In this document: positions 6,771 through 21,488 of the stretch, piece after piece
Layout: every line of letters starts with the position of its first letter
How positions within the stretch are numbered: position 1 is the first letter of the stretch
Origin: a virus
Lineage: Duplodnaviria > Caudoviricetes
Reading direction: 5' to 3' (one strand)
Length of the DNA stretch: 64,000 nucleotides
IMG/VR virus record: IMGVR_UViG_3300020576_003495
Span: 114,171-178,170 of that record
The notes under the pieces: generated by a model
Database searches by the model: none
Seen by the model: the letters and a program-made list of their open reading frames with translations, nothing else
Told to the model about the DNA's origin: nothing
Translations under genes and position numbers: made by a program

Positions 6771-7247
6771 ATGAGTTATATATTTGTACCCGCCCCTGAG
6801 AATTACCCCGGAACGATCTACCAGTACGGTAATAGAATTTTAGAACACCATTTAGTGTGGTGGTTGTCTACGGGGTTACTTGTTCCAGATGGTTACGTTT
6901 TGCACCATAAAGACGAAGACCCAACTAACAATGAATTTAGTAACTTGGAGTTGATGCTTGAGGGTGACCATATCCGCCACCACAACACACAGCACACCAT
7001 TGCTAGATTTGTATGCCGTAGGTGCGGAAATACGTTTGACCGAAATACCAGAGTTATTTCTGATGGGTCAAAACATATCTATTGCTCAAAAAGGTGTTCA
7101 GCGCTCAGCACATCAGGAAGATGCCGCCTTAGCGAAGATATGAAGGAAAAAGTGCGGTTGCTTAGAATTTCTGGTGGGTCGACTAGAAGTATTTCCAGAG
7201 AGTTAGGTATTAGTCGCAACACTGTGATGAAGTATTGGGGGATATAG
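6771..7247 (+). CDS. HNH homing endonuclease with Zn finger and C-terminal HTH
   Basis: LHHKDEDPTNNEFSNL; SISRELGISRNTV. Confidence 0.9.
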   Translation: MSYIFVPAPENYPGTIYQYGNRILEHHLVWWLSTGLLVPDGYVLHHKDEDPTNNEFSNLELMLEGDHIRHHNTQHTIARFVCRRCGNTFDRNTRVISDGSKHIYCSKRCSALSTSGRCRLSEDMKEKVRLLRISGGSTRSISRELGISRNTVMKYWGI

Positions 7248-7758: not shown

Positions 7759-7787
7759 TTGACAAATCGGGGGAGCTTTTATATAAT
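7759..7787 (+). promoter_or_regulatory. consensus sigma70 promoter
   Basis: TTGACA-17 nt-TATAAT directly upstream of the ncRNA at 7799. Confidence 0.9.
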
Positions 7788-7798
7788 TAGTAAAACAC

Positions 7799-8141
7799 TG
7801 TTAGATGCGTGTTTTTGGAGGTGGGCTTAGAAGCAGCCATCCTTAATGAGTAGGGCAAGTGCTGTATGCGGATACACATAGGCTGAGAAGGGCATCATTC
7901 AGGCCGAAAAGTTCAATAGGGTTTTGTGTGGATTCTTAGGGAGGCTGGCGTTAGGCCAGATAGCCGAAAGACGAAGCAAAATCACGCCAAGGCAGCTTCG
8001 CAAACTGCTGAAGGAATGGGAGTAGCACTCCCTGAGAACGAATGGGCGTACAGGGCCACACAGCTAGTATCAAGGGGAAGTTGCCGGTAATCCCCACGAT
8101 CCCTTTTGGCGTGACAGCACACCAAGAATACGCATCTAACA
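7799..8141 (+). ncRNA. ~340-nt structured RNA containing a split 23S rRNA L11-binding (H43/H44) mimic, copy 1
   Basis: 20-bp closing stem; GGCTTAGAAGCAGCCATCC ... GCGTGACAGCACAC; paralogue at 11582. Confidence 0.8.
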
Positions 8142-8157
8142 CTGTTGTAAAAAGTTT

Positions 8158-8196
8158 GGCGAGGAGGTTGTTGGTTACCAGACAGGCTCATAACCT
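8158..8196 (+). pseudogene. 5' remnant of tRNA-Met(CAT)
   Basis: GGCGAGG...CAGG-CTCATAA-CCT, then interrupted. Confidence 0.7.
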
Positions 8197-8235
8197 TTTT
8201 CGCTAGTTGTGTTATGATACCCGTGGGGGTATGCA

Positions 8236-8688
8236 ATGACACACTTACTATGTTGCAGTTGTAAAGAAAGCAAGCCTTTAGCTAGCTTTTCCAAAGACAA
8301 GAGTTCAAAGCGTGGGTACGCTAGTAAATGTAAAGACTGCCATAATACCTACGTGCGTACTGTGTGGTACCCAAAGAACAAGGATAAGCAGGTAGCGTCT
8401 GTTGCTCGTTTTAAAACAGCCAACAGACTGAAAGAAATCGCTTGGCGGCACGGTGTTCCGTTAGCGGATGTAGAAGAAGCAATAGAGCGCAGTTCTGGGG
8501 CTTGTGAAAGCTGCGGTTCCACTGTCTCTGTTGTGCTAGACCACTGCCACACCACGTCTAAAGTTAGAGGCGTCTTGTGCATGCGTTGTAATACAGTTTT
8601 AGGTAGGCTAGGGGATTCTTACGAGAGTGTTAAACAGCACATGGAGAGTTTGCTGGCCTATTTGGAAAAAAGTTTCGCGGGTGAGTGA
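8236..8688 (+). CDS. endonuclease VII-like HNH endonuclease
   Basis: CESC..LDHCHTTSKVRGVLCMRCN. Confidence 0.9.
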   Translation: MTHLLCCSCKESKPLASFSKDKSSKRGYASKCKDCHNTYVRTVWYPKNKDKQVASVARFKTANRLKEIAWRHGVPLADVEEAIERSSGACESCGSTVSVVLDHCHTTSKVRGVLCMRCNTVLGRLGDSYESVKQHMESLLAYLEKSFAGE

Positions 8689-8753
8689 AACGTCTTACAC
8701 AATGGGTTCATATCCCATTAACAGCAGGGTTAGACTCCCTGTACCCGCAACCA
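8676..8753 (+). tRNA. initiator tRNA-fMet(CAT)
   Basis: C1:A72 mismatch; ATGGG-TTCATAT-CCCAT; ACCA; overlaps the endonuclease stop. Confidence 0.85.
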
Positions 8754-8755
8754 GT

Positions 8756-8882
8756 TTCTGTGGCGTAAATAACGATTTCCTCAATGCCAATGAAGTAACG
8801 TGGGTTCGAATCCCATCGGCTCGTAAGGGCTGTCGTCTAGTGGTTAGGACACTAAAAATTTCGTTGTTGCTTGTTCCCAGAA
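8756..8882 (+). ncRNA. YrlA-type Y RNA with permuted tRNA-like domain
   Basis: Closing stem CTGTGGCGTA/GCTTGTTCCCAG; T arm GTGGGTTCGAATCCCAT precedes D arm GTCTAGTGGTTAGGAC. Confidence 0.75.
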
Positions 8883-8894
8883 TTAAACAAAGGC

Positions 8895-9130
8895 CAGAAG
8901 CCTAAGTAGTTCCCCGAGCATACGGTAAACGTGGGGTTCCCTTGAACAGACTGTTCTTCAACTTCTGTTCGGGGGGATCATGCGACAGTTTTACGGTGTG
9001 TGCTTTCGTGCCGGTTCTACTAGAATCAAAATTTTATCAAAGCATAGAACCTTGGTGGGGGCTAGGAAAGCCTCAAAATCACTAAAGGTCAGCAGTTGTA
9101 TTTACAGAATTACGTGGGGGCTTGTTCCTG
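8895..9130 (+). ncRNA. large RNA closed by a Y-RNA-like stem
   Basis: Ends GGCTTGTTCCTG pairing with CAGAAGCC; long internal hairpins. Confidence 0.45.
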
Positions 9131-9162
9131 TGTTCATAGAAGGATCACCCCAGTAGCAGATT

Positions 9163-9228
9163 TGCGTGGTGTATGGTTACCGTTACTTCTATCTTAGTGA
9201 AATCACACGGTTACCGCTTGTTCCCGCA
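9163..9228 (+). ncRNA. minimal Y-RNA-like hairpin
   Basis: TGCGTGGTGTA...GCTTGTTCCCGCA. Confidence 0.6.
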
Positions 9229-9237
9229 TTTATTTAT

Positions 9238-9314
9238 TGCTTGTTAGCTCAGTCCGGCAGAGCATTGTCTTGATAAGGCACAGGTCGTCGGTTCAAATCC
9301 GACACAAGCAACCA
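9238..9314 (+). tRNA. tRNA-Ile(GAT)
   Basis: TGTC-TTGATAA-GGCA; ACCA. Confidence 0.92.
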
Positions 9315-9319
9315 AGTTT

Positions 9320-9380
9320 CGGTGGTGTTGGTTAGTCGTTCTTCTTTCGGTGAAAAATCCGACTAGCTGTTTGTTCCCCG
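9320..9380 (+). ncRNA. minimal Y-RNA-like hairpin
   Basis: CGGTGGTGTT...GTTTGTTCCCCG. Confidence 0.55.
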
Positions 9381-9441
9381 ATTAATTTCCCCAGTCTTAG
9401 TGGCGGGATGGTCTTAGGTATTTATACCCACAGGAGTCAAC

Positions 9442-9942
9442 ATGTCCCCCGAACAGAAACAAGCCACATCCGAAGGTATTGAGAATGCTTTAGCTAGCGT
9501 ACCCCCCGAGATTGTTGATGAAGCCCTACGCTTCTGGTATGCCTACGCAAAACTCCATTATCGTTTTACATCGGCACAAGTCCTCGTTTCTTTCCTTGCT
9601 CGCAAGGGCACAACACCCGGAAATGGCAAGGGTTGGCGGGATTGTTGGGGGTCGATTTGCGTGAAAGCCAAAAAGCAAGGCATCATGCAAAAAGTGGGGA
9701 TCATGGTCACCACTGAGAAGCATACCCACATGGGTCACGGTGCGTACTGGCAGTCCAAGGTTTATGAAGGTGGGGATGAGCAGTATCGAAACAGCCCCGA
9801 GCAGGATTTGAAGCGTGCGCTGTACATGCGCTGGCTCAAGAAGGATTATGAGAATCTGCGTGACTACACGGATGACGTGTTTTCGATGGGGGTCAAGTTT
9901 GCCCTTGAGAACAAAGAGTACGTTGCGGGGATAAAAATTTAA
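9442..9942 (+). CDS. hypothetical protein
   Basis: AGGAG RBS, 166 aa. Confidence 0.75.
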   Translation: MSPEQKQATSEGIENALASVPPEIVDEALRFWYAYAKLHYRFTSAQVLVSFLARKGTTPGNGKGWRDCWGSICVKAKKQGIMQKVGIMVTTEKHTHMGHGAYWQSKVYEGGDEQYRNSPEQDLKRALYMRWLKKDYENLRDYTDDVFSMGVKFALENKEYVAGIKI

Positions 9943-9978
9943 CTGTGTGTGCTAACGTACAGACAGGTAGTTTCAACT

Positions 9979-10053
9979 GTGTCCCTGACAGAGAGGCCGA
10001 TGTGCAGGATTGCAAACCCTGATAGCCCGGTTCAATTCCGGGGGGACACTCCA
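9979..10053 (+). tRNA. tRNA-Cys(GCA)
   Basis: CAGG.-TTGCAAA-.CCTG; U73; CCA. Confidence 0.92.
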
Positions 10054-10211
10054 AGTTACGTAGCATCACGGAAGGAACGTGCGTGGCCCACGAGGTCGAT
10101 GGGGTACGGTCAGTTTTCATGTGGGGGTCGACGCCCTAACATGCAAAGCTTAATGCTGTGCTGACAAGAAGGTGAGCAGGGCGCAACCCTGTAAGACCTT
10201 CCTACGTATTT

Positions 10212-10289
10212 GCGCTCTGAGCTAGTCTGGTGATTCAGCGACAGTTTGAAGAACTGTAGAACTAGGTTCGATTCCTAGAGGGTGCACCA
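10212..10289 (+). tRNA. tRNA-Phe(GAA)
   Basis: ACAGT-TTGAAGA-ACTGT; ACCA. Confidence 0.9.
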
Positions 10290-10308
10290 AGATTACTGTA
10301 TAGTCGAG

Positions 10309-10383
10309 TGGGGTGATATGCAATGGATGCATACTTGGCTTTGAACCAAGGTTAGTCAGGTTCGATTCCTACCACCCCTTCCA
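10309..10383 (+). tRNA. tRNA-Gln(TTG)
   Basis: CTTGG-CTTTGAA-CCAAG; CCA. Confidence 0.85.
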
Positions 10384-10389
10384 GTTTTT

Positions 10390-10473
10390 AGAGAGATGAG
10401 CTTTGGAAGCAAACTATCTTGGAAAGGTAGTCCATCCGAAAGGGTGACAGTTCGATTCTGTATCTCTCTGCCA
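10390..10473 (+). tRNA. tRNA-Ser(GGA)
   Basis: CTATC-TTGGAAA-GGTAG; long V arm; GCCA. Confidence 0.88.
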
Positions 10474-10481
10474 TGTTTTAA

Positions 10482-10569
10482 GGTTAGGTGCGCGAGTGGC
10501 TAAAGCGTCTTGTTTGCTAAACAATGAGTCCGAAAGGGCACTAGGGTTCGAACCCCTACCTAACCGCCA
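10482..10569 (+). tRNA. tRNA-Ser(GCT)
   Basis: TTGT-TTGCTAA-ACAA; long V arm; GCCA. Confidence 0.9.
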
Positions 10570-10575
10570 TGTTAC

Positions 10576-10652
10576 GCCGGGTTGACGGAATTGGCATACG
10601 TGCAAGTTTCAAAAACTTGATCTTGCGGGTTCGACTCCCGCACCCGGCACCA
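10576..10652 (+). tRNA. tRNA-Leu(CAA), short variable region
   Basis: CAAGT-TTCAAAA-ACTTG; ACCA. Confidence 0.88.
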
Positions 10653-10658
10653 AGTTTT

Positions 10659-10735
10659 GCCCTTGTGGTGGAATAGGCATACACACGCGCTTGAGGGGTG
10701 CGGTTCTGTCGGTTCGAGTCCGACCAAGGGTACCA
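10659..10735 (+). tRNA. tRNA-Leu(GAG), short variable region
   Basis: CGCGC-TTGAGGG-GTGCG; ACCA. Confidence 0.88.
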
Positions 10736-10741
10736 GTCTAT

Positions 10742-10812
10742 GCCCTCACTATCGAATAGCATCAGGTTTCCTAAACCAGATTGTGACAGTTAAACTCTGT
10801 CTGAGGGCACCA
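10742..10812 (+). tRNA. tRNA-Arg(CCT), non-canonical
   Basis: GCCCTCA/TGAGGGC; loop TTCCTAA; tiny D arm; ACCA. Confidence 0.75.
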
Positions 10813-10813
10813 T

Positions 10814-10884
10814 ACCCCGACTGTGGGACAGATTTTGGCCTTCTAAGCCAAAAATGGGAGGTTCGAAACCTTCTCGGGGTGCCA
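10814..10884 (+). tRNA. tRNA-Arg(TCT), non-canonical
   Basis: ACCCCGA/TCGGGGT; loop CTTCTAA; tiny D arm; GCCA. Confidence 0.8.
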
Positions 10885-10890
10885 AGTTTT

Positions 10891-10964
10891 GCGGATGTAG
10901 CTTAGTGATAAAGCGCTTGTTTGCCAAGCAAGATACGCGAGTTTGATTCTCGTCTTCCGCTCCA
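10891..10964 (+). tRNA. tRNA-Gly(GCC)
   Basis: CTTGT-TTGCCAA-GCAAG; TCCA. Confidence 0.92.
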
Positions 10965-10970
10965 AGTTTC

Positions 10971-11045
10971 GCCCTTGTAGCACAGTGGCAGTGCACTCGC
11001 TTGGTAAGCGAGAGGTCGTGGGTTCGATTCCGACCAAGGGCACCA
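10971..11045 (+). tRNA. tRNA-Thr(GGT)
   Basis: CTCGC-TTGGTAA-GCGAG; ACCA. Confidence 0.92.
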
Positions 11046-11051
11046 AGTTTC

Positions 11052-11126
11052 GCCCTTTTAGCGCAGTGATAGAGCAATCGTTTCGTAAGCGATAGGTCGT
11101 CTGTTTGATTCAGACAAGGGGCACCA
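11052..11126 (+). tRNA. tRNA-Thr(CGT)
   Basis: ATCGT-TTCGTAA-GCGAT; ACCA. Confidence 0.9.
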
Positions 11127-11136
11127 GAGTTTTAAT

Positions 11137-11213
11137 GGGACGTTAGCTCAGTCGGTAGTAGCACTCGCCTCTTAAGCGATAGGTCGTCAGTTCGATCCTG
11201 ACACGTCCTACCA
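11137..11213 (+). tRNA. tRNA-Lys(CTT)
   Basis: TCGC-CTCTTAA-GCGA; ACCA. Confidence 0.92.
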
Positions 11214-11275
11214 TCACATACTCCTTGACAAACTGTGGGGATTGGATTATCATTACTCCATAGTCAATCAACGGA

Positions 11276-11575
11276 GTGATGATCATGTGGAATATAGTAA
11301 TCGAAGGTAGTCAGGAAGTGTACGTTCGCCATAATAATGAAATCGTGGCCCGGTTCAAGTACGCATCCCCCAAGGCCAGTGCCAAGCATTTTGTGAAGTT
11401 TCTGAAGGCGAACTACAGCCCCGAAGAATACTTTGCCAAGCGCAAGTTGGGCATCCCGCCTTTGCGTATCCTTCATCAAAAGGGGTACGTCAGCTACAAC
11501 GTTGAACGTGCCGACAAGGAAGCTATTGCGGGGGCTAAGAAGGTTTGGGCGATGTATGATCGTCTGAGTTTTTAA
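11276..11575 (+). CDS. hypothetical protein
   Basis: Promoter at 11225 and AACGGAGTG RBS. Confidence 0.75.
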   Translation: MMIMWNIVIEGSQEVYVRHNNEIVARFKYASPKASAKHFVKFLKANYSPEEYFAKRKLGIPPLRILHQKGYVSYNVERADKEAIAGAKKVWAMYDRLSF

Positions 11576-11581
11576 AGTTTC

Positions 11582-11917
11582 GGTGTTCGTAGAGGGTGGG
11601 CTTAGAAGCAGCCATCCCTTAAAGAGTAGGACAAGTGCTGTATGCAGGTACACATAGGCAGTTTAAGGGCATAGTTAACTGGCCGAAAAGTTCAATAGGG
11701 TTTGTGTGGATTCTTAGAACGGCTTGGGGTCTGGACTCCAAGTACCAATCGAAAGACGAAGCAAATCACGCCAAGGCAGTCTCGCAAACTGCTGAAGGAA
11801 TGGGGGTTGCACCCACTGAGAGCGAATGGCATACAGAGCCACACGGCAAGTATCAATGGAAGGCAGAGATGCTAAATCCAACGATTCCTTTTAGCGTAGT
11901 AGCACACTACGAACACC
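11582..11917 (+). ncRNA. ~340-nt RNA with split 23S rRNA L11-binding mimic, copy 2
   Basis: Closing stem GGTGTTCGTAG/CTACGAACACC; same conserved blocks as 7799..8141. Confidence 0.8.
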
Positions 11918-11976
11918 ACCCATTTTTAGGAGATTTATCATGCGTTCAGAAGAAAGTGACAAACGCCCCGAATAAT

Positions 11977-12051
11977 GGGCGTGTAATTCAATTGGGAGAA
12001 TCACCGGCTTTTACCCGGTTTACCAGAGTTCAAATCTCTGCGCGCCTACCA
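11977..12051 (+). tRNA. tRNA-Lys(TTT)
   Basis: ACCGG-CTTTTAC-CCGGT; ACCA. Confidence 0.88.
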
Positions 12052-12069
12052 GTTGCAAGTAATTTCAAT

Positions 12070-12103
12070 GGTGATTGAAGAGCAAATTGGCCGCGCCAGC
12101 AGC
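12070..12103 (+). pseudogene. 5' remnant of a tRNA-His-like gene
   Basis: GGTGATTG AAGAGCAAA..CGCGCCA resembles the adjacent His D arm. Confidence 0.5.
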
Positions 12104-12638: not shown

Positions 12639-13046
12639 ATGAAGAATGGTGAGTATACTTTAGTCATAGCGCCTGAAGGGTATCCGGGCAAGAGGTACCG
12701 TGGTCGCTACTGCTATGAACATCATTTGGTTTGGTGGTTGAATACAGGTGAAGTCGTACTTGCTGGCGAGTTGATTCACCACAAAGATGAGGACAAGCGC
12801 AATAACGTTTTCCTTAACCTTGAGAAAATGTCAAAGACTTCTCATGATGCACACCACAGTAACCTACCGATTAAGTCGCCTGTTCTGGTGTCTCTTTTTT
12901 GTTTTTGGTGCGGTTCTGCTTTCACCTTGAGGAAGCATGTTTACGTGTGCAGGGTTAGAGCTAACGGGCATGCTGATGTGTGTTGTGGAAGGTCGTGCCA
13001 AGTCAAGAAGCAGCAGCATGACAAAAAAGTTAAAAAGGAAAATTAA
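12639..13046 (+). CDS. HNH homing endonuclease, paralogue of 6771..7247
   Basis: APEGYPG...EHHLVWW...IHHKDEDKRNN. Confidence 0.9.
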   Translation: MKNGEYTLVIAPEGYPGKRYRGRYCYEHHLVWWLNTGEVVLAGELIHHKDEDKRNNVFLNLEKMSKTSHDAHHSNLPIKSPVLVSLFCFWCGSAFTLRKHVYVCRVRANGHADVCCGRSCQVKKQQHDKKVKKEN

Positions 13047-13120: not shown

Positions 13121-13171
13121 CACTAAAACTGTTCGACTTCTGCTAAAATATTATTTTTGTGGAGTCGAACC

Positions 13172-13696
13172 ATGCGGATAAGTAAAAAACAAATAGCTAG
13201 GTTTTGGTCTAACGTGCAGAAAACAGATAGCTGTTGGCTTTGGTTGCGGCAACCAAATAATAAAGGCTACGGTAAGGTAACTATAAGGCCGAATAGTCAA
13301 GAGCGTGTAATGCTATTGGCACACAGGCTAGCTTGGCTTCTAGTTAAAGGTGAAATACCAGATGGGTTATTTGTCCTACACAAGTGCGATACTCCCTTGT
13401 GTTGCAATCCCGAACACTTATTCCTTGGAACTCAACAAGATAACATGGGTGATATGTGGGCTAAGGGGCGCAGTCGACTGCATGAGTTCAGGCACTTGGG
13501 GACGATTGCTGCACATACTGAAGTGGCTACGCAAAAGCGGAAAGATACGTTTATTGCCATTGAACACCAGAAGGGTAAGCGCAACTCGCAGTTTGGGTCT
13601 TTTTGGATTACCGATGGTAAAGTTAATAAGAAGTGGCGTTCTGAGTTGGGCTGTATCCCCTCTGGTTTTTTTAAAGGACGTAGTAAATTTTTTTAA
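13172..13696 (+). CDS. HNH homing endonuclease
   Basis: FWSNV..CWLW..GYG..AHR..VLHKCDTPLCCNPEHL. Confidence 0.92.
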   Translation: MRISKKQIARFWSNVQKTDSCWLWLRQPNNKGYGKVTIRPNSQERVMLLAHRLAWLLVKGEIPDGLFVLHKCDTPLCCNPEHLFLGTQQDNMGDMWAKGRSRLHEFRHLGTIAAHTEVATQKRKDTFIAIEHQKGKRNSQFGSFWITDGKVNKKWRSELGCIPSGFFKGRSKFF

Positions 13697-18815: not shown

Positions 18816-19521
18816 TTGAAATTACTTGCAACGGAGTGTTAAGTGAAAAAGAGAAGCGCAAAACGAAATGTCTGGGGTAACGTGGTTGGTTACGAGGGTG
18901 GTCGTCGCGCCGAAGAATTTGGTCACGCTGATTACGCTGATCTTTGGGCTGAGTTGTGGGTTAGCGGGATGAGCAGAGAAGAAGCAGAGTGCAGGGCGCT
19001 TGATTCACGCACTCGTGAGCCTGTTCATGGTGTTGGGCATATGCAAGGTCGGGGTGCCGCATGACCGTACCTTTCAAGCAAGATACGTTTTACCGATGTT
19101 ATGATGAGGGTTGGGGGGAGAAGGGTGTTTATGATCACGAACTATCCTTTGACCAAGCGTATCAGCACATAGTCGATGCGTCTGGAAAAGATGTTGCTGA
19201 CATGTGGGTAAAGTATGAAGACCCGATGTTCGAGTACGGTATGTTTGGACACACTCGCATGGTTGCTTCGCTTTGGTTTGATCCTGATGATTGGGAAGGG
19301 TCTGATGACTGGTAATACTGATAGGGGGGTGGCTAATGAAAGCTGAATACAGGAAGTTGAACGACAGAACACAGAACAGCAGCACTTACCACAAGAAGGA
19401 TGGCACTGCTGTTCGGGCCAAGCTTAACGCTGAAACCCGCAAGGAAGAACTGGCAAGGCAAGCACAAAACCCTATGCCTGTTCATGGTTTTTGGTAGGCT
19501 ATTAGTTTGGCGGTTAACATT

Positions 19522-19684
19522 GCAAGGGTAGTTCAGTCCGGTAGAACCATCGCTCTGGATATATTGAAACGGAAACAGCTAAGGAAAACAAGTAAGGCTG
19601 ATACCTGCCACACTGCACCCGAAAAGTGCAACACTGTGGCCTCAAGTGAGTGTAATCGCAGGTTCGAATCCTGCCCCTTGCACC
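19522..19684 (+). ncRNA. tRNA-like RNA with ~90-nt insertion in the anticodon arm
   Basis: Perfect acceptor GCAAGGG/CCCTTGC, canonical D and T arms. Confidence 0.75.
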
Positions 19685-20628: not shown

Positions 20629-20984
20629 TCAGGTCTGTATTGAGGTTGTCACAGGTTCCATACCCCTATGGCTGGAAATCCGGCAACGGTAGAGCAGACT
20701 TGATAATTGCTGTAATTCTACTTGACGGTAAGCGTTTCGGACGCGGGGGCAGAACCCGCCGCCTCCACCAAACAGGGTCTTGCAAAGGGCTTTGCTTAAT
20801 GGGGGCGACACAGTTTCGACGGGGCGTGGATAAGATGGTGGCAGCAGGATAGGTGACTGCCCTAAGCAGCGCAAAACTTTAACTGCAAACGACTCGCAGT
20901 ATCGTGTAGCGGCTTAGCCGTTACGGAGTTTGCCCACCAAACCTACTTTGTAGGGGGCTTGGCAACAGAAAGTGGGCAGTACTT
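20629..20984 (+). ncRNA. ssrA: circularly permuted (two-piece) tmRNA
   Basis: CGCCTCCACCA ends at 20770, before GGGGGCG..TTTCGAC at 20801; G3:U70; tag ANDSQYRVAA* at 20885-20917; outer boundaries approximate. Confidence 0.9.
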
Positions 20985-21488
20985 TTTATGGTCACCCATA
21001 AAAAAATTAAACGCCATTTCTTTACGGCAGATAAGGCAGCTAACCCTACGTTGTTTTTTACCCTGCATGGGGTTGTTACCAGAAGCCGATTGTTCTTTTC
21101 GTTTAGTTGTGATGTAGTCTTTGAAAGACGGGTCATCCCTAGTTTTTTTCCACAAGGCACCAGACCCGAGTATTCCAGCGGCTCGTTTGTTCATAGTGCT
21201 AAATAGCACGGGCTGGACGGCTATATTGAGGCTTTGTTTAGACGCATAAGTTTCGCGTATAAGGGATTGTTCATATTCAAACGCAGCTTCTTTATTGGGA
21301 AACTCAGCAATAACTTTGTAGTCGAACAACTTGAATCGGGGTTTTACTAGCTTAGACGAGGTTTTATAAATGTGCCCAAGGTCTTCAAGGGCGGGTACTT
21401 TATTAGCCCACCTGACACCGATATAAAATTCTTGTGTTTCTCTGTTGGTGCATTGGTACACGTATGGTAGTATTTTAGGTGAGGTCAT
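20943..21488 (-). CDS. GIY-YIG homing endonuclease
   Basis: YVYQCTN...FYIGVR; NUMOD3-like NPMQGKK. Confidence 0.85.
   Translation of the reverse strand: MTSPKILPYVYQCTNRETQEFYIGVRWANKVPALEDLGHIYKTSSKLVKPRFKLFDYKVIAEFPNKEAAFEYEQSLIRETYASKQSLNIAVQPVLFSTMNKRAAGILGSGALWKKTRDDPSFKDYITTKRKEQSASGNNPMQGKKQRRVSCLICRKEMAFNFFMGDHKKYCPLSVAKPPTK

Follow-up and report, generated by a model that had tools for sequence, protein, structure and literature searches.

The final 64 kb of a 178-kb IMG/VR virus record (completeness estimate 91%), a stretch of 64,000 nucleotides hereafter called the window, contains at 5.5–23.6 kb a phage tRNA array with 28 typed tRNA genes, one tRNA-like call and a permuted transfer-messenger RNA (tmRNA), through which HNH and Endonuclease VII genes are scattered. 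Within this array lie two copies of an RNA element, copy 1 at 7799–8141 and copy 2 at 11582–11917, whose ends resemble the GTPase-associated centre (GAC) of 23S ribosomal RNA (rRNA), namely the top of helix 42 (H42), H43 and H44 (Escherichia coli positions 1051–1108, the numbering used throughout). Both were found on the plus strand exactly where a first-pass annotation, made from the letters of the DNA, had placed them, and a search of the whole record revealed no other copy; an H44-like match at 19157, considered as a third copy, sits within an open reading frame (ORF) with no H43 close by and was dismissed as chance. Each copy reads, in order, closing stem, 6–7 bases, the 16-mer GGCUUAGAAGCAGCCA, UC..UUAA.GAGU, insert, GCGU...AGCACAC and closing stem (Table 1).

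The ends of each RNA are predicted to rebuild the independently folding 58-nt uL11-binding domain of the ribosome. Both copies carry the H43 T-loop sequence, the core nucleotides 1059, 1060, 1071, 1072 and 1088, the 1082–1086 pair and the H44 hairpin, so that sequence and fold both support the first-pass description of a stand-alone phage imitation of this domain. The closing stems were likewise confirmed to pair in both copies despite being unlike in sequence, and a compensatory change is present inside H43, where A-U at the 1057–1081 pair of copy 1 is replaced by G-C in copy 2. Two details of the earlier description required revision. The A1067 and A1095 loops had been described as retained, which holds for the native H43 16-mer but not for the A1095 loop, which reads GUGACA in copy 1, with G at 1095, and GUAGUA in copy 2, where A1095 is kept and 1096 is G. 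In addition, the insert does not occupy the junction of H43 and H44 as first proposed, but interrupts the 5′ strand of H44 between 1090 and 1091.

The two copies share 86% mean column identity in a MAFFT alignment and 80% identity by BLAST, and the indels between them have lengths that are not multiples of three, indicating that no reading frame is conserved. A protein-coding reading of the ORF at 11635–12078, which spans copy 2 together with a tRNA, was rejected in view of these indels. Both RNAs fold more stably than their dinucleotide shuffles (copy 1, z = −4.64; copy 2, z = −2.28). Judged by their sequences, the two copies are paralogues that encode a stable non-coding RNA belonging to a large phage family.

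The extent of this family was estimated by IMG/VR scans with the H43 16-mer and with the 3′ signature, the locus totals being lower bounds. The 16-mer occurred in at least 117 IMG/VR loci, almost none of which, among the matches listed, was an rRNA gene, and after GAGU the listed loci leave the 23S sequence for inserts of many kinds. Among the same matches, 79 elements (72 distinct) continue into an H44 part and then a strand that completes the closing stem, whose sequence differs from element to element. These elements have a median length of 198 nt (range 59–416 nt) and a median closing stem of 7 bp, and family inserts range from 0 to about 350 nt at the same junction. The 3′-signature scan, which is independent of H43, gave more than 119 matches in the viral collection and 57 matches among 185,579 bacterial and archaeal species genomes, mostly on metagenome-bin contigs of 100–380 kb. 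By this distribution the element is a phage trait, and the hosts of its phages span many phyla. It is present, unannotated, in the Pseudomonas phages UNO-G1W1, pf16 and Astolliot, Aeromonas phage 4_4572, Paenibacillus phage Pd_22F, Xanthomonas phages XaC1 and XacN1, Cronobacter phage GAP32 and Pectobacterium phage CBB; the whole copy of the window had no match in GenBank phages. The genome of the cultured gut bacterium Flintibacter muris (L340, L357) also holds a family member, presumably on a prophage.

A tRNA gene lies within 300 nt of 42 of the 72 distinct elements. A CCA tRNA-like 3′ end follows the closing stem in 4 of the 72, about the number expected by chance. Across 50 phage records, 47 had one H44-type signature and one (G031) had none; two elements a few kilobases apart, as in the phage of the window, were clear among these records only in G016, the second match in G010 having an unlike loop.

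The family shares a common plan, which fits both copies: a closing stem, a native-like H43, GAGU, a covarying insert helix, UUUG, GCGUnnnAGCACAY and the closing stem. Position 1101, a U in native 23S rRNA, is A family-wide, giving a U1090–A1101 pair, and a UUUG linker before G1091 is likewise family-wide. The first pair of the insert helix covaries, GAGU-A occurring with U-UUUG and GAGU-G with C-UUUG. At the short end of the range, L074 is an insert-free H43–H44 phage element that keeps the native U1101, and L016 is a second candidate by eye; inserts of about 45 nt are present in L024, L032 and, by eye, L031.

Conservation was measured in 67 distinct sequences among the matches listed of the scan anchored on the 3′ signature, excluding A1077, which is fixed by the search expression, and 1078–1079, which it restricts to pyrimidines. 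G1059, U1060, G1063, U1066, G1071 and C1072 were invariant (67/67), positions 1062, 1064, 1065, 1069 and 1073–1076 were 93–99% conserved, and the pairs 1058–1080 and 1082–1086 (U-A, C-G, A-U) covaried. The tip of H43 was variable, with A at 1067 in 87%, G at 1068 in 73% and A at 1070 in 84% of the sequences. The H44 loop was the part of the mimic changing fastest; across the family A occupies 1095 in about 91%, with free variation at 1096 and 1097. In the ribosomal domain, nucleotides 1058–1060, 1062–1065, 1075–1083 and 1088 lie at the interface with the uL11 C-terminal domain, and 1067–1070 and 1095–1098 have been assigned to thiostrepton and the uL11 N-terminal domain (PMC1802607). The conserved set of the phage family largely overlaps the former list, and the nucleotides of the latter are its most variable positions. 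The selected property, as read from this pattern, is the fold together with the uL11 C-terminal-domain surface, not the factor-facing tips, which favours uL11 over elongation factors, RelA or a ribotoxin, all named as possible partners in the first-pass annotation, as the direct partner.

The resemblance to rRNA does not extend beyond H43 and H44; only chance 7–11-mers connect the flanks and the insert with Salmonella 23S rRNA. The equivalent of H42 is a plain helix with no conserved sequence across the family, so that the sequence-specific uL10 site is not copied. Comparison with 23S rRNA revealed no element like the sarcin-ricin loop, and the insert, considered as a copy of the sarcin-ricin loop or of H88, shared only chance 7–11-mers with the real 23S sequence.

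The insert begins after U1090, is closed by its own helix and is followed by the conserved UUUG linker. Searching with an nhmmer profile of the insert gave eight distinct full-length members of its class (copies 1 and 2, L035, L259, L097, L015 = L034, L117 and L293 = L297) and about 20 more loci that match the 3′ module only, the insert base and this module (P5, with its GNRA hairpin and UAA bulge) recurring in about 30 loci. Members of the class share the conserved loops AAGGGCAU, UCGCUAA or UCGCAAA, and GAACGAAU. Helices were placed in seven sequences, L293 being left out, with a custom script that allows a slack of ±3 bases and hence has a high null; random partners given the same slack reached the total for Pb in 21 of 500 trials and those for the other helices in 0–6. 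Modest for each helix singly, this support is convincing taken together and points to the insert as a selected structure. Pb and P2 account for the covarying internal hairpins of the first-pass annotation, which proved to be real, Pb (8018–8032) being formed by GGGAG/CUCCC in copy 1, whereas copy 2 has GGGG(G)/CCCA(C), which leaves a single mismatch in the five-pair window.

Copies 1 and 2 share an extra branch at about 7915–7990 that is absent from the other members of the class, and the helix private to them has one base fewer per strand in copy 2. Within P5, copy 2 keeps an intact inner GNRA hairpin, whereas that of copy 1 is degenerate. No Rfam family matched the insert even at E ≤ 10 in the window and five related loci, and exact 18–20-mers of the insert had no match in IMG/VR. 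The pattern ACATAGGC..AAGGGCAT occurred in 93 loci, nearly all coding coincidences, and a single metagenome scan returned mostly the protein motif KGIELAEKLK and one true relative, the metagenomic L293 = L297. There, L293:10597–10866 contains the same insert class and the H44 part, H43 being replaced by a small hairpin with the stem AAG/CUU and the loop CUAAUGUA; no clear closing stem was found at this locus. Whatever its function, the insert class of the window is a sizeable new structured RNA domain.

Table 1 Features of the two RNA copies and their surroundings; positions are those of the window, and rRNA positions follow E. coli 23S rRNA.
Feature	Position	Strand	Details
Copy 1 RNA	7799-8141	+	343 nt
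Copy 1 closing stem	7799-7817 / 8123-8141		19 bp
Copy 1 positions 1056-1061	7818-7823	+	
Copy 1 H43 16-mer	7824-7839	+	native 23S sequence
Copy 1 junction 1078-1090	7840-7851	+	1 base fewer than native
Copy 1 insert	7852-8108	+	257 nt
Copy 1 H44 hairpin plus 1101-1104	8109-8122	+	
Copy 2 RNA	11582-11917	+	336 nt
Copy 2 closing stem	11582-11591 / 11908-11917		10-11 bp
Copy 2 H43 16-mer	11599-11614	+	native 23S sequence
Copy 2 junction	11615-11627	+	
Copy 2 insert	11628-11893	+	266 nt
Copy 2 H44	11894-11907	+	
P1 (copy 1)	7852-7855 / 8101-8104		28/28 standard pairs; closes insert; five different sequences
P2 (copy 1)	7862-7869 / 8046-8053		49/56 standard pairs
P3 (copy 1)	7881-7886 / 7899-7905		38/42 pairs; hairpin, seven different stems, conserved loop AAGGGCAU
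P4 (copy 1)	7911-7914 / 8036-8039		27/28 pairs; long-range; GUUC/GAAC, UCUC/GAGA, GCUC/GAGC
Helix private to the two copies (copy 1)	7922-7926 / 7977-7981		
Pa (copy 1)	7991-7995 / 8005-8009		34/35 pairs; loop UCGCUAA or UCGCAAA
Pb (copy 1)	8018-8022 / 8028-8032		32/35 pairs
P5 (copy 1)	8074-8077 / 8092-8095		26/28 pairs; encloses short GNRA hairpin and UAA bulge
UUUG linker (copy 1)	8105-8108		
Sigma-70-type promoter, copy 1 (predicted)	7759-7787	+	TTGACA, 17-nt spacer, TATAAT; 12/12 consensus
Near-consensus promoter (predicted)	11225-11253	+	11/12 consensus; upstream of 99-codon ORF and copy 2
Endonuclease VII ORF	8236-8688		Pfam 4e-15; follows tRNA-Met 5′ half
Intact tRNA-Met	8677-8749		
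HNH_3 homing endonuclease gene	6771-7247		in tRNA array
HNH_3 homing endonuclease gene	12639-13046		in tRNA array
HNH_3 homing endonuclease gene	13157-13696		in tRNA array

Copy 1 is preceded by the perfect sigma-70 consensus promoter reported in the first-pass annotation, with a predicted start a few bases ahead of the closing stem. In a run recorded as a freshwater metatranscriptome, a 284-nt contig was identical to 7850–8133 and continued through both insert junctions without a break, hinting at an unspliced RNA; the parts uncovered in this run (the copy 2 insert and the ORFs) are no evidence of silence. Two joints, 11630>11883 and 11635>11885, with 23-base sides and 90% likeness, probably derive from real 23S rRNA or short family members rather than from splicing.

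Three wastewater runs, probably of DNA, hold a related phage whose copy 1 differs by one base. This phage is without 8161–8753, the stretch with the Endonuclease VII gene, and has 148 other letters, possibly a shorter family member, in place of copy 2 (11575–11927); the elements thus behave as exchangeable cassettes. In the window, about 8 nt separate the closing stem of copy 1 from what reads as the 5′ half of a tRNA-Met with a CAU loop. The endonuclease cassette splits this tRNA, so that the RNA would originally have stood directly ahead of a tRNA, and the stretch 8150–8753 fits a homing cassette that broke and replaced the tRNA gene.

The copies are surrounded by tRNA genes, homing endonuclease genes and small ORFs that match no Pfam family, and neither copy lies in a ribosomal protein leader. 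The ORFs at 9442–9942 and 11276–11575 (166 and 99 codons) matched no Pfam family and had no homologue in about 270 loci around other elements, and no conserved neighbouring protein was found across these loci. The phage carries no gene for uL11, RelA/SpoT, a SpoU methylase or Ro60, and no uL11 homologue was detected in any of the 50 other phage records with the element (0/50); a uL11 partner would thus have to be the host's.

Elsewhere in the array, the tmRNA at 20678–21008 is of the permuted, two-piece type (134.7 bits against the tmRNA_permuted model) with the tag ANDSQYRVAA. A tRNA match at 19522–19682 extends over 161 nt, so the gene must carry an insertion of some 90 nt, shorter than group I introns usually are. 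A weak match to the Y-RNA-like YrlA model at 8783–8874 (27.5 bits against a gathering score of 69, E 0.0066) lies in a 490-nt ORF-free stretch that also contains tRNA-like pieces, in a phage without a Ro60 (TROVE) gene.

Taking these observations together, we favour, at what we regard as an even chance, a stable RNA that acts off the ribosome by binding host uL11. Copy 1 would be the first gene of a tRNA operon with its own consensus promoter, and its 3′ end would be generated by RNase P cutting at the tRNA that follows. The private stem would stand in for H42, with the class-specific domain of about 260 nt grafted into H44 between 1090 and 1091, and the RNA would stay out of ribosomes, fold like the stalk base and bind host uL11. 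Two outcomes can be envisaged. In one, uL11 would clamp the RNA, stabilising and protecting it, and the insert would do the class-specific work; in the other, abundant RNA would draw exchangeable uL11 off ribosomes, blunting RelA activation and altering RF1-dependent termination. Ribosomes that lack uL11 still translate but fail to activate RelA and terminate poorly with RF1. A two-part adaptor, in which the ends recruit uL11 as a free pseudo stalk base and the insert binds a second partner, is a possible elaboration that we hold only tentatively and rather doubt; that second partner might be a translation or release factor, RelA, a tRNA or a defence protein, and host translation may thereby be rewired or shielded.

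Several observations weigh against uL11 binding. Most members have long inserts with conserved loops, which a simple sponge would not need, and insert-free members are rare (L074 in the delimited set and L016 by eye). The helix grafted at 1090/1091 might clash with uL11, and the nucleotides that contact uL11 also build the fold, so that folding alone may account for their conservation. In copy 1, a base is missing from 1081–1083, within the uL11 contact region, and 1095 is G. The Flintibacter muris element is unlike the genome's own GAC at the variable positions and so, in this one pair, gave no sign of host co-adaptation; three other genomes gave no native GAC match with the pattern used. Finally, the RNA evidence is a contig from one run, and contigs cannot prove transcription, ends or abundance.

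As an alternative, the GAC fold may be a very stable, self-folding cassette that only holds the ends of the insert, an unrelated functional RNA, with no ribosomal partner of importance. The many long insert classes, from about 45 to about 350 nt, the recurrence of the insert base and 3′ module and the conserved loops of the window's class all agree with such a purely structural clamp, and in a single case, L293/L297, the insert class persists with a degenerate H43, showing that an insert can be kept without a perfect GAC. However, any stable hairpin would serve as a clamp, so an exact 23S core across hundreds of phages demands a further reason, and L074, probably joined by L016, keeps the core with no insert to hold; we therefore consider this explanation unlikely. 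Another alternative, in which the RNA is a decoy that soaks up a competitor toxin, a host defence or a thiopeptide recognising H43/H44 and thereby spares the ribosomes on which the phage depends, strikes us as quite improbable. The fast-changing H44 loop is what an arms race would be expected to produce. Enzymes that modify the GAC exist, since the Rhs/type VI secretion toxin Tre23 ADP-ribosylates 23S H44 nucleotides 1095–1098 (PMC8661411), RNA-targeting ADP-ribosyltransferases such as CmdT act in anti-phage defence (cited in PMC13768812), and a phage RNA decoy has a precedent in the ToxI mimic (PMC3475682). A section heading in the Tre23 paper, however, points to actively translating ribosomes as the substrate (PMC8661411). 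A decoy should also preserve the nucleotides under attack, yet A1067 and 1095–1097 are the least conserved, and the many host phyla argue for a universal partner rather than a sporadic toxin. To our knowledge, no anti-phage system is aimed at the GAC.

Self-splicing, for which an assay had been proposed with the first-pass annotation, would make the insert a group I or other intron in a 23S mini-exon and release a GAC mimic of about 85 nt. The 5′ flank ends in U (GAGU), the copy 1 insert ends in G, homing endonuclease genes lie nearby, and large-subunit rRNA position 1090 is a known intron site. Nevertheless, no group I or group II model matched the window or five related loci at E ≤ 10, the insert of copy 2, like that of other members, ends in A, so that no terminal G is conserved, and some members have an insert of only about 45 nt, or none, at this very junction. 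The insert is moreover closed right at the junction by its own covarying helix, the contig from the RNA library is unspliced, and the Endonuclease VII gene belongs to the separate tRNA-Met cassette that is absent in the related phage, making an intron very improbable. The identity of the H43 16-mer with native 23S rRNA could in principle mark a decaying fragment of host 23S rDNA without function. To this we assign next to no likelihood, and the covariation rules it out, compensatory changes being found in the closing stem, H43, 1082–1086 and the insert helices. In addition, no rRNA likeness extends beyond H43 and H44, the U1101-to-A change and the UUUG linker are family-wide, hundreds of phages carry the element, and copy 1 has its own consensus promoter.

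The domain copied here is the docking base of all translational GTPases and the uL11 site for RelA activation, and is targeted by thiopeptide antibiotics and at least one toxin. Apart from tRNAs and tmRNA, phage genomes are known to encode a few exchangeable ribosomal proteins. If the RNA binds uL11 or another GAC partner, it would represent a new viral hold on host translation or the stringent response, for which the well-studied 58-nt domain would provide a direct test tool, and with family members in cultured phages of Pseudomonas, Xanthomonas, Cronobacter, Pectobacterium, Aeromonas and Paenibacillus, experiments are feasible now. The first-pass statement that no named family corresponds to the element was borne out by a search of Rfam 15, in which the copies had no match at the gathering score or at E ≤ 10, large-subunit rRNA models included; literature on the GAC, uL11, rRNA mimicry and phages contained no description, most subscription journals lying outside that search. 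Within Rfam 15 and the searchable literature, nothing comparable to this stand-alone, near-exact viral copy of a functional ribosomal centre is described, making it an RNA of a new kind.

Its closest counterpart is the native GAC itself, with which the phage RNA shares an identical H43 16-mer, the core G1059, U1060, G1071, C1072 and A1088 and a 6-nt H44 loop, spanning the same minimal domain that folds and binds uL11 alone. In contrast to the native GAC, the phage RNA is phage-encoded, usually among tRNA genes, and stands free, with a private variable closing stem and no rRNA flanks. It also has A at 1101 in place of the native U1101, and hence the U1090–A1101 pair, places a helix and the UUUG linker between 1090 and 1091, and leaves A1067, 1068, 1070 and 1095–1097 free to vary. 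The leaders of ribosomal protein operons, such as the uL10 leader and the uL1 site in the L11 operon mRNA, are likewise off-ribosome RNAs that imitate the rRNA site of a ribosomal protein. These leaders are cis-regulatory, reside within host ribosomal protein mRNAs and imitate loosely, whereas the phage RNA is separate and stable, has no ribosomal protein gene downstream and is a near base-for-base copy. Sequestering RNAs such as 6S RNA are abundant and structured and, by imitating the nucleic-acid ligand of a host protein, bind that protein away from its usual site; the phage RNA may share this sequestering logic by analogy, with a different target and fold and no sequence relation to 6S RNA. 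The phage-associated GOLLD, ROOL and HEARO and the Y-RNA-like YrlA are also large structured RNAs, often beside phage tRNA genes, but no Rfam model of theirs matches the elements. The ToxI antitoxin mimic (PMC3475682) is, like the element, a phage-encoded imitation of a host RNA, but it neutralises one toxin of a single abortive-infection system, whereas the GAC mimic copies a universal ribosomal domain in phages of many host phyla.

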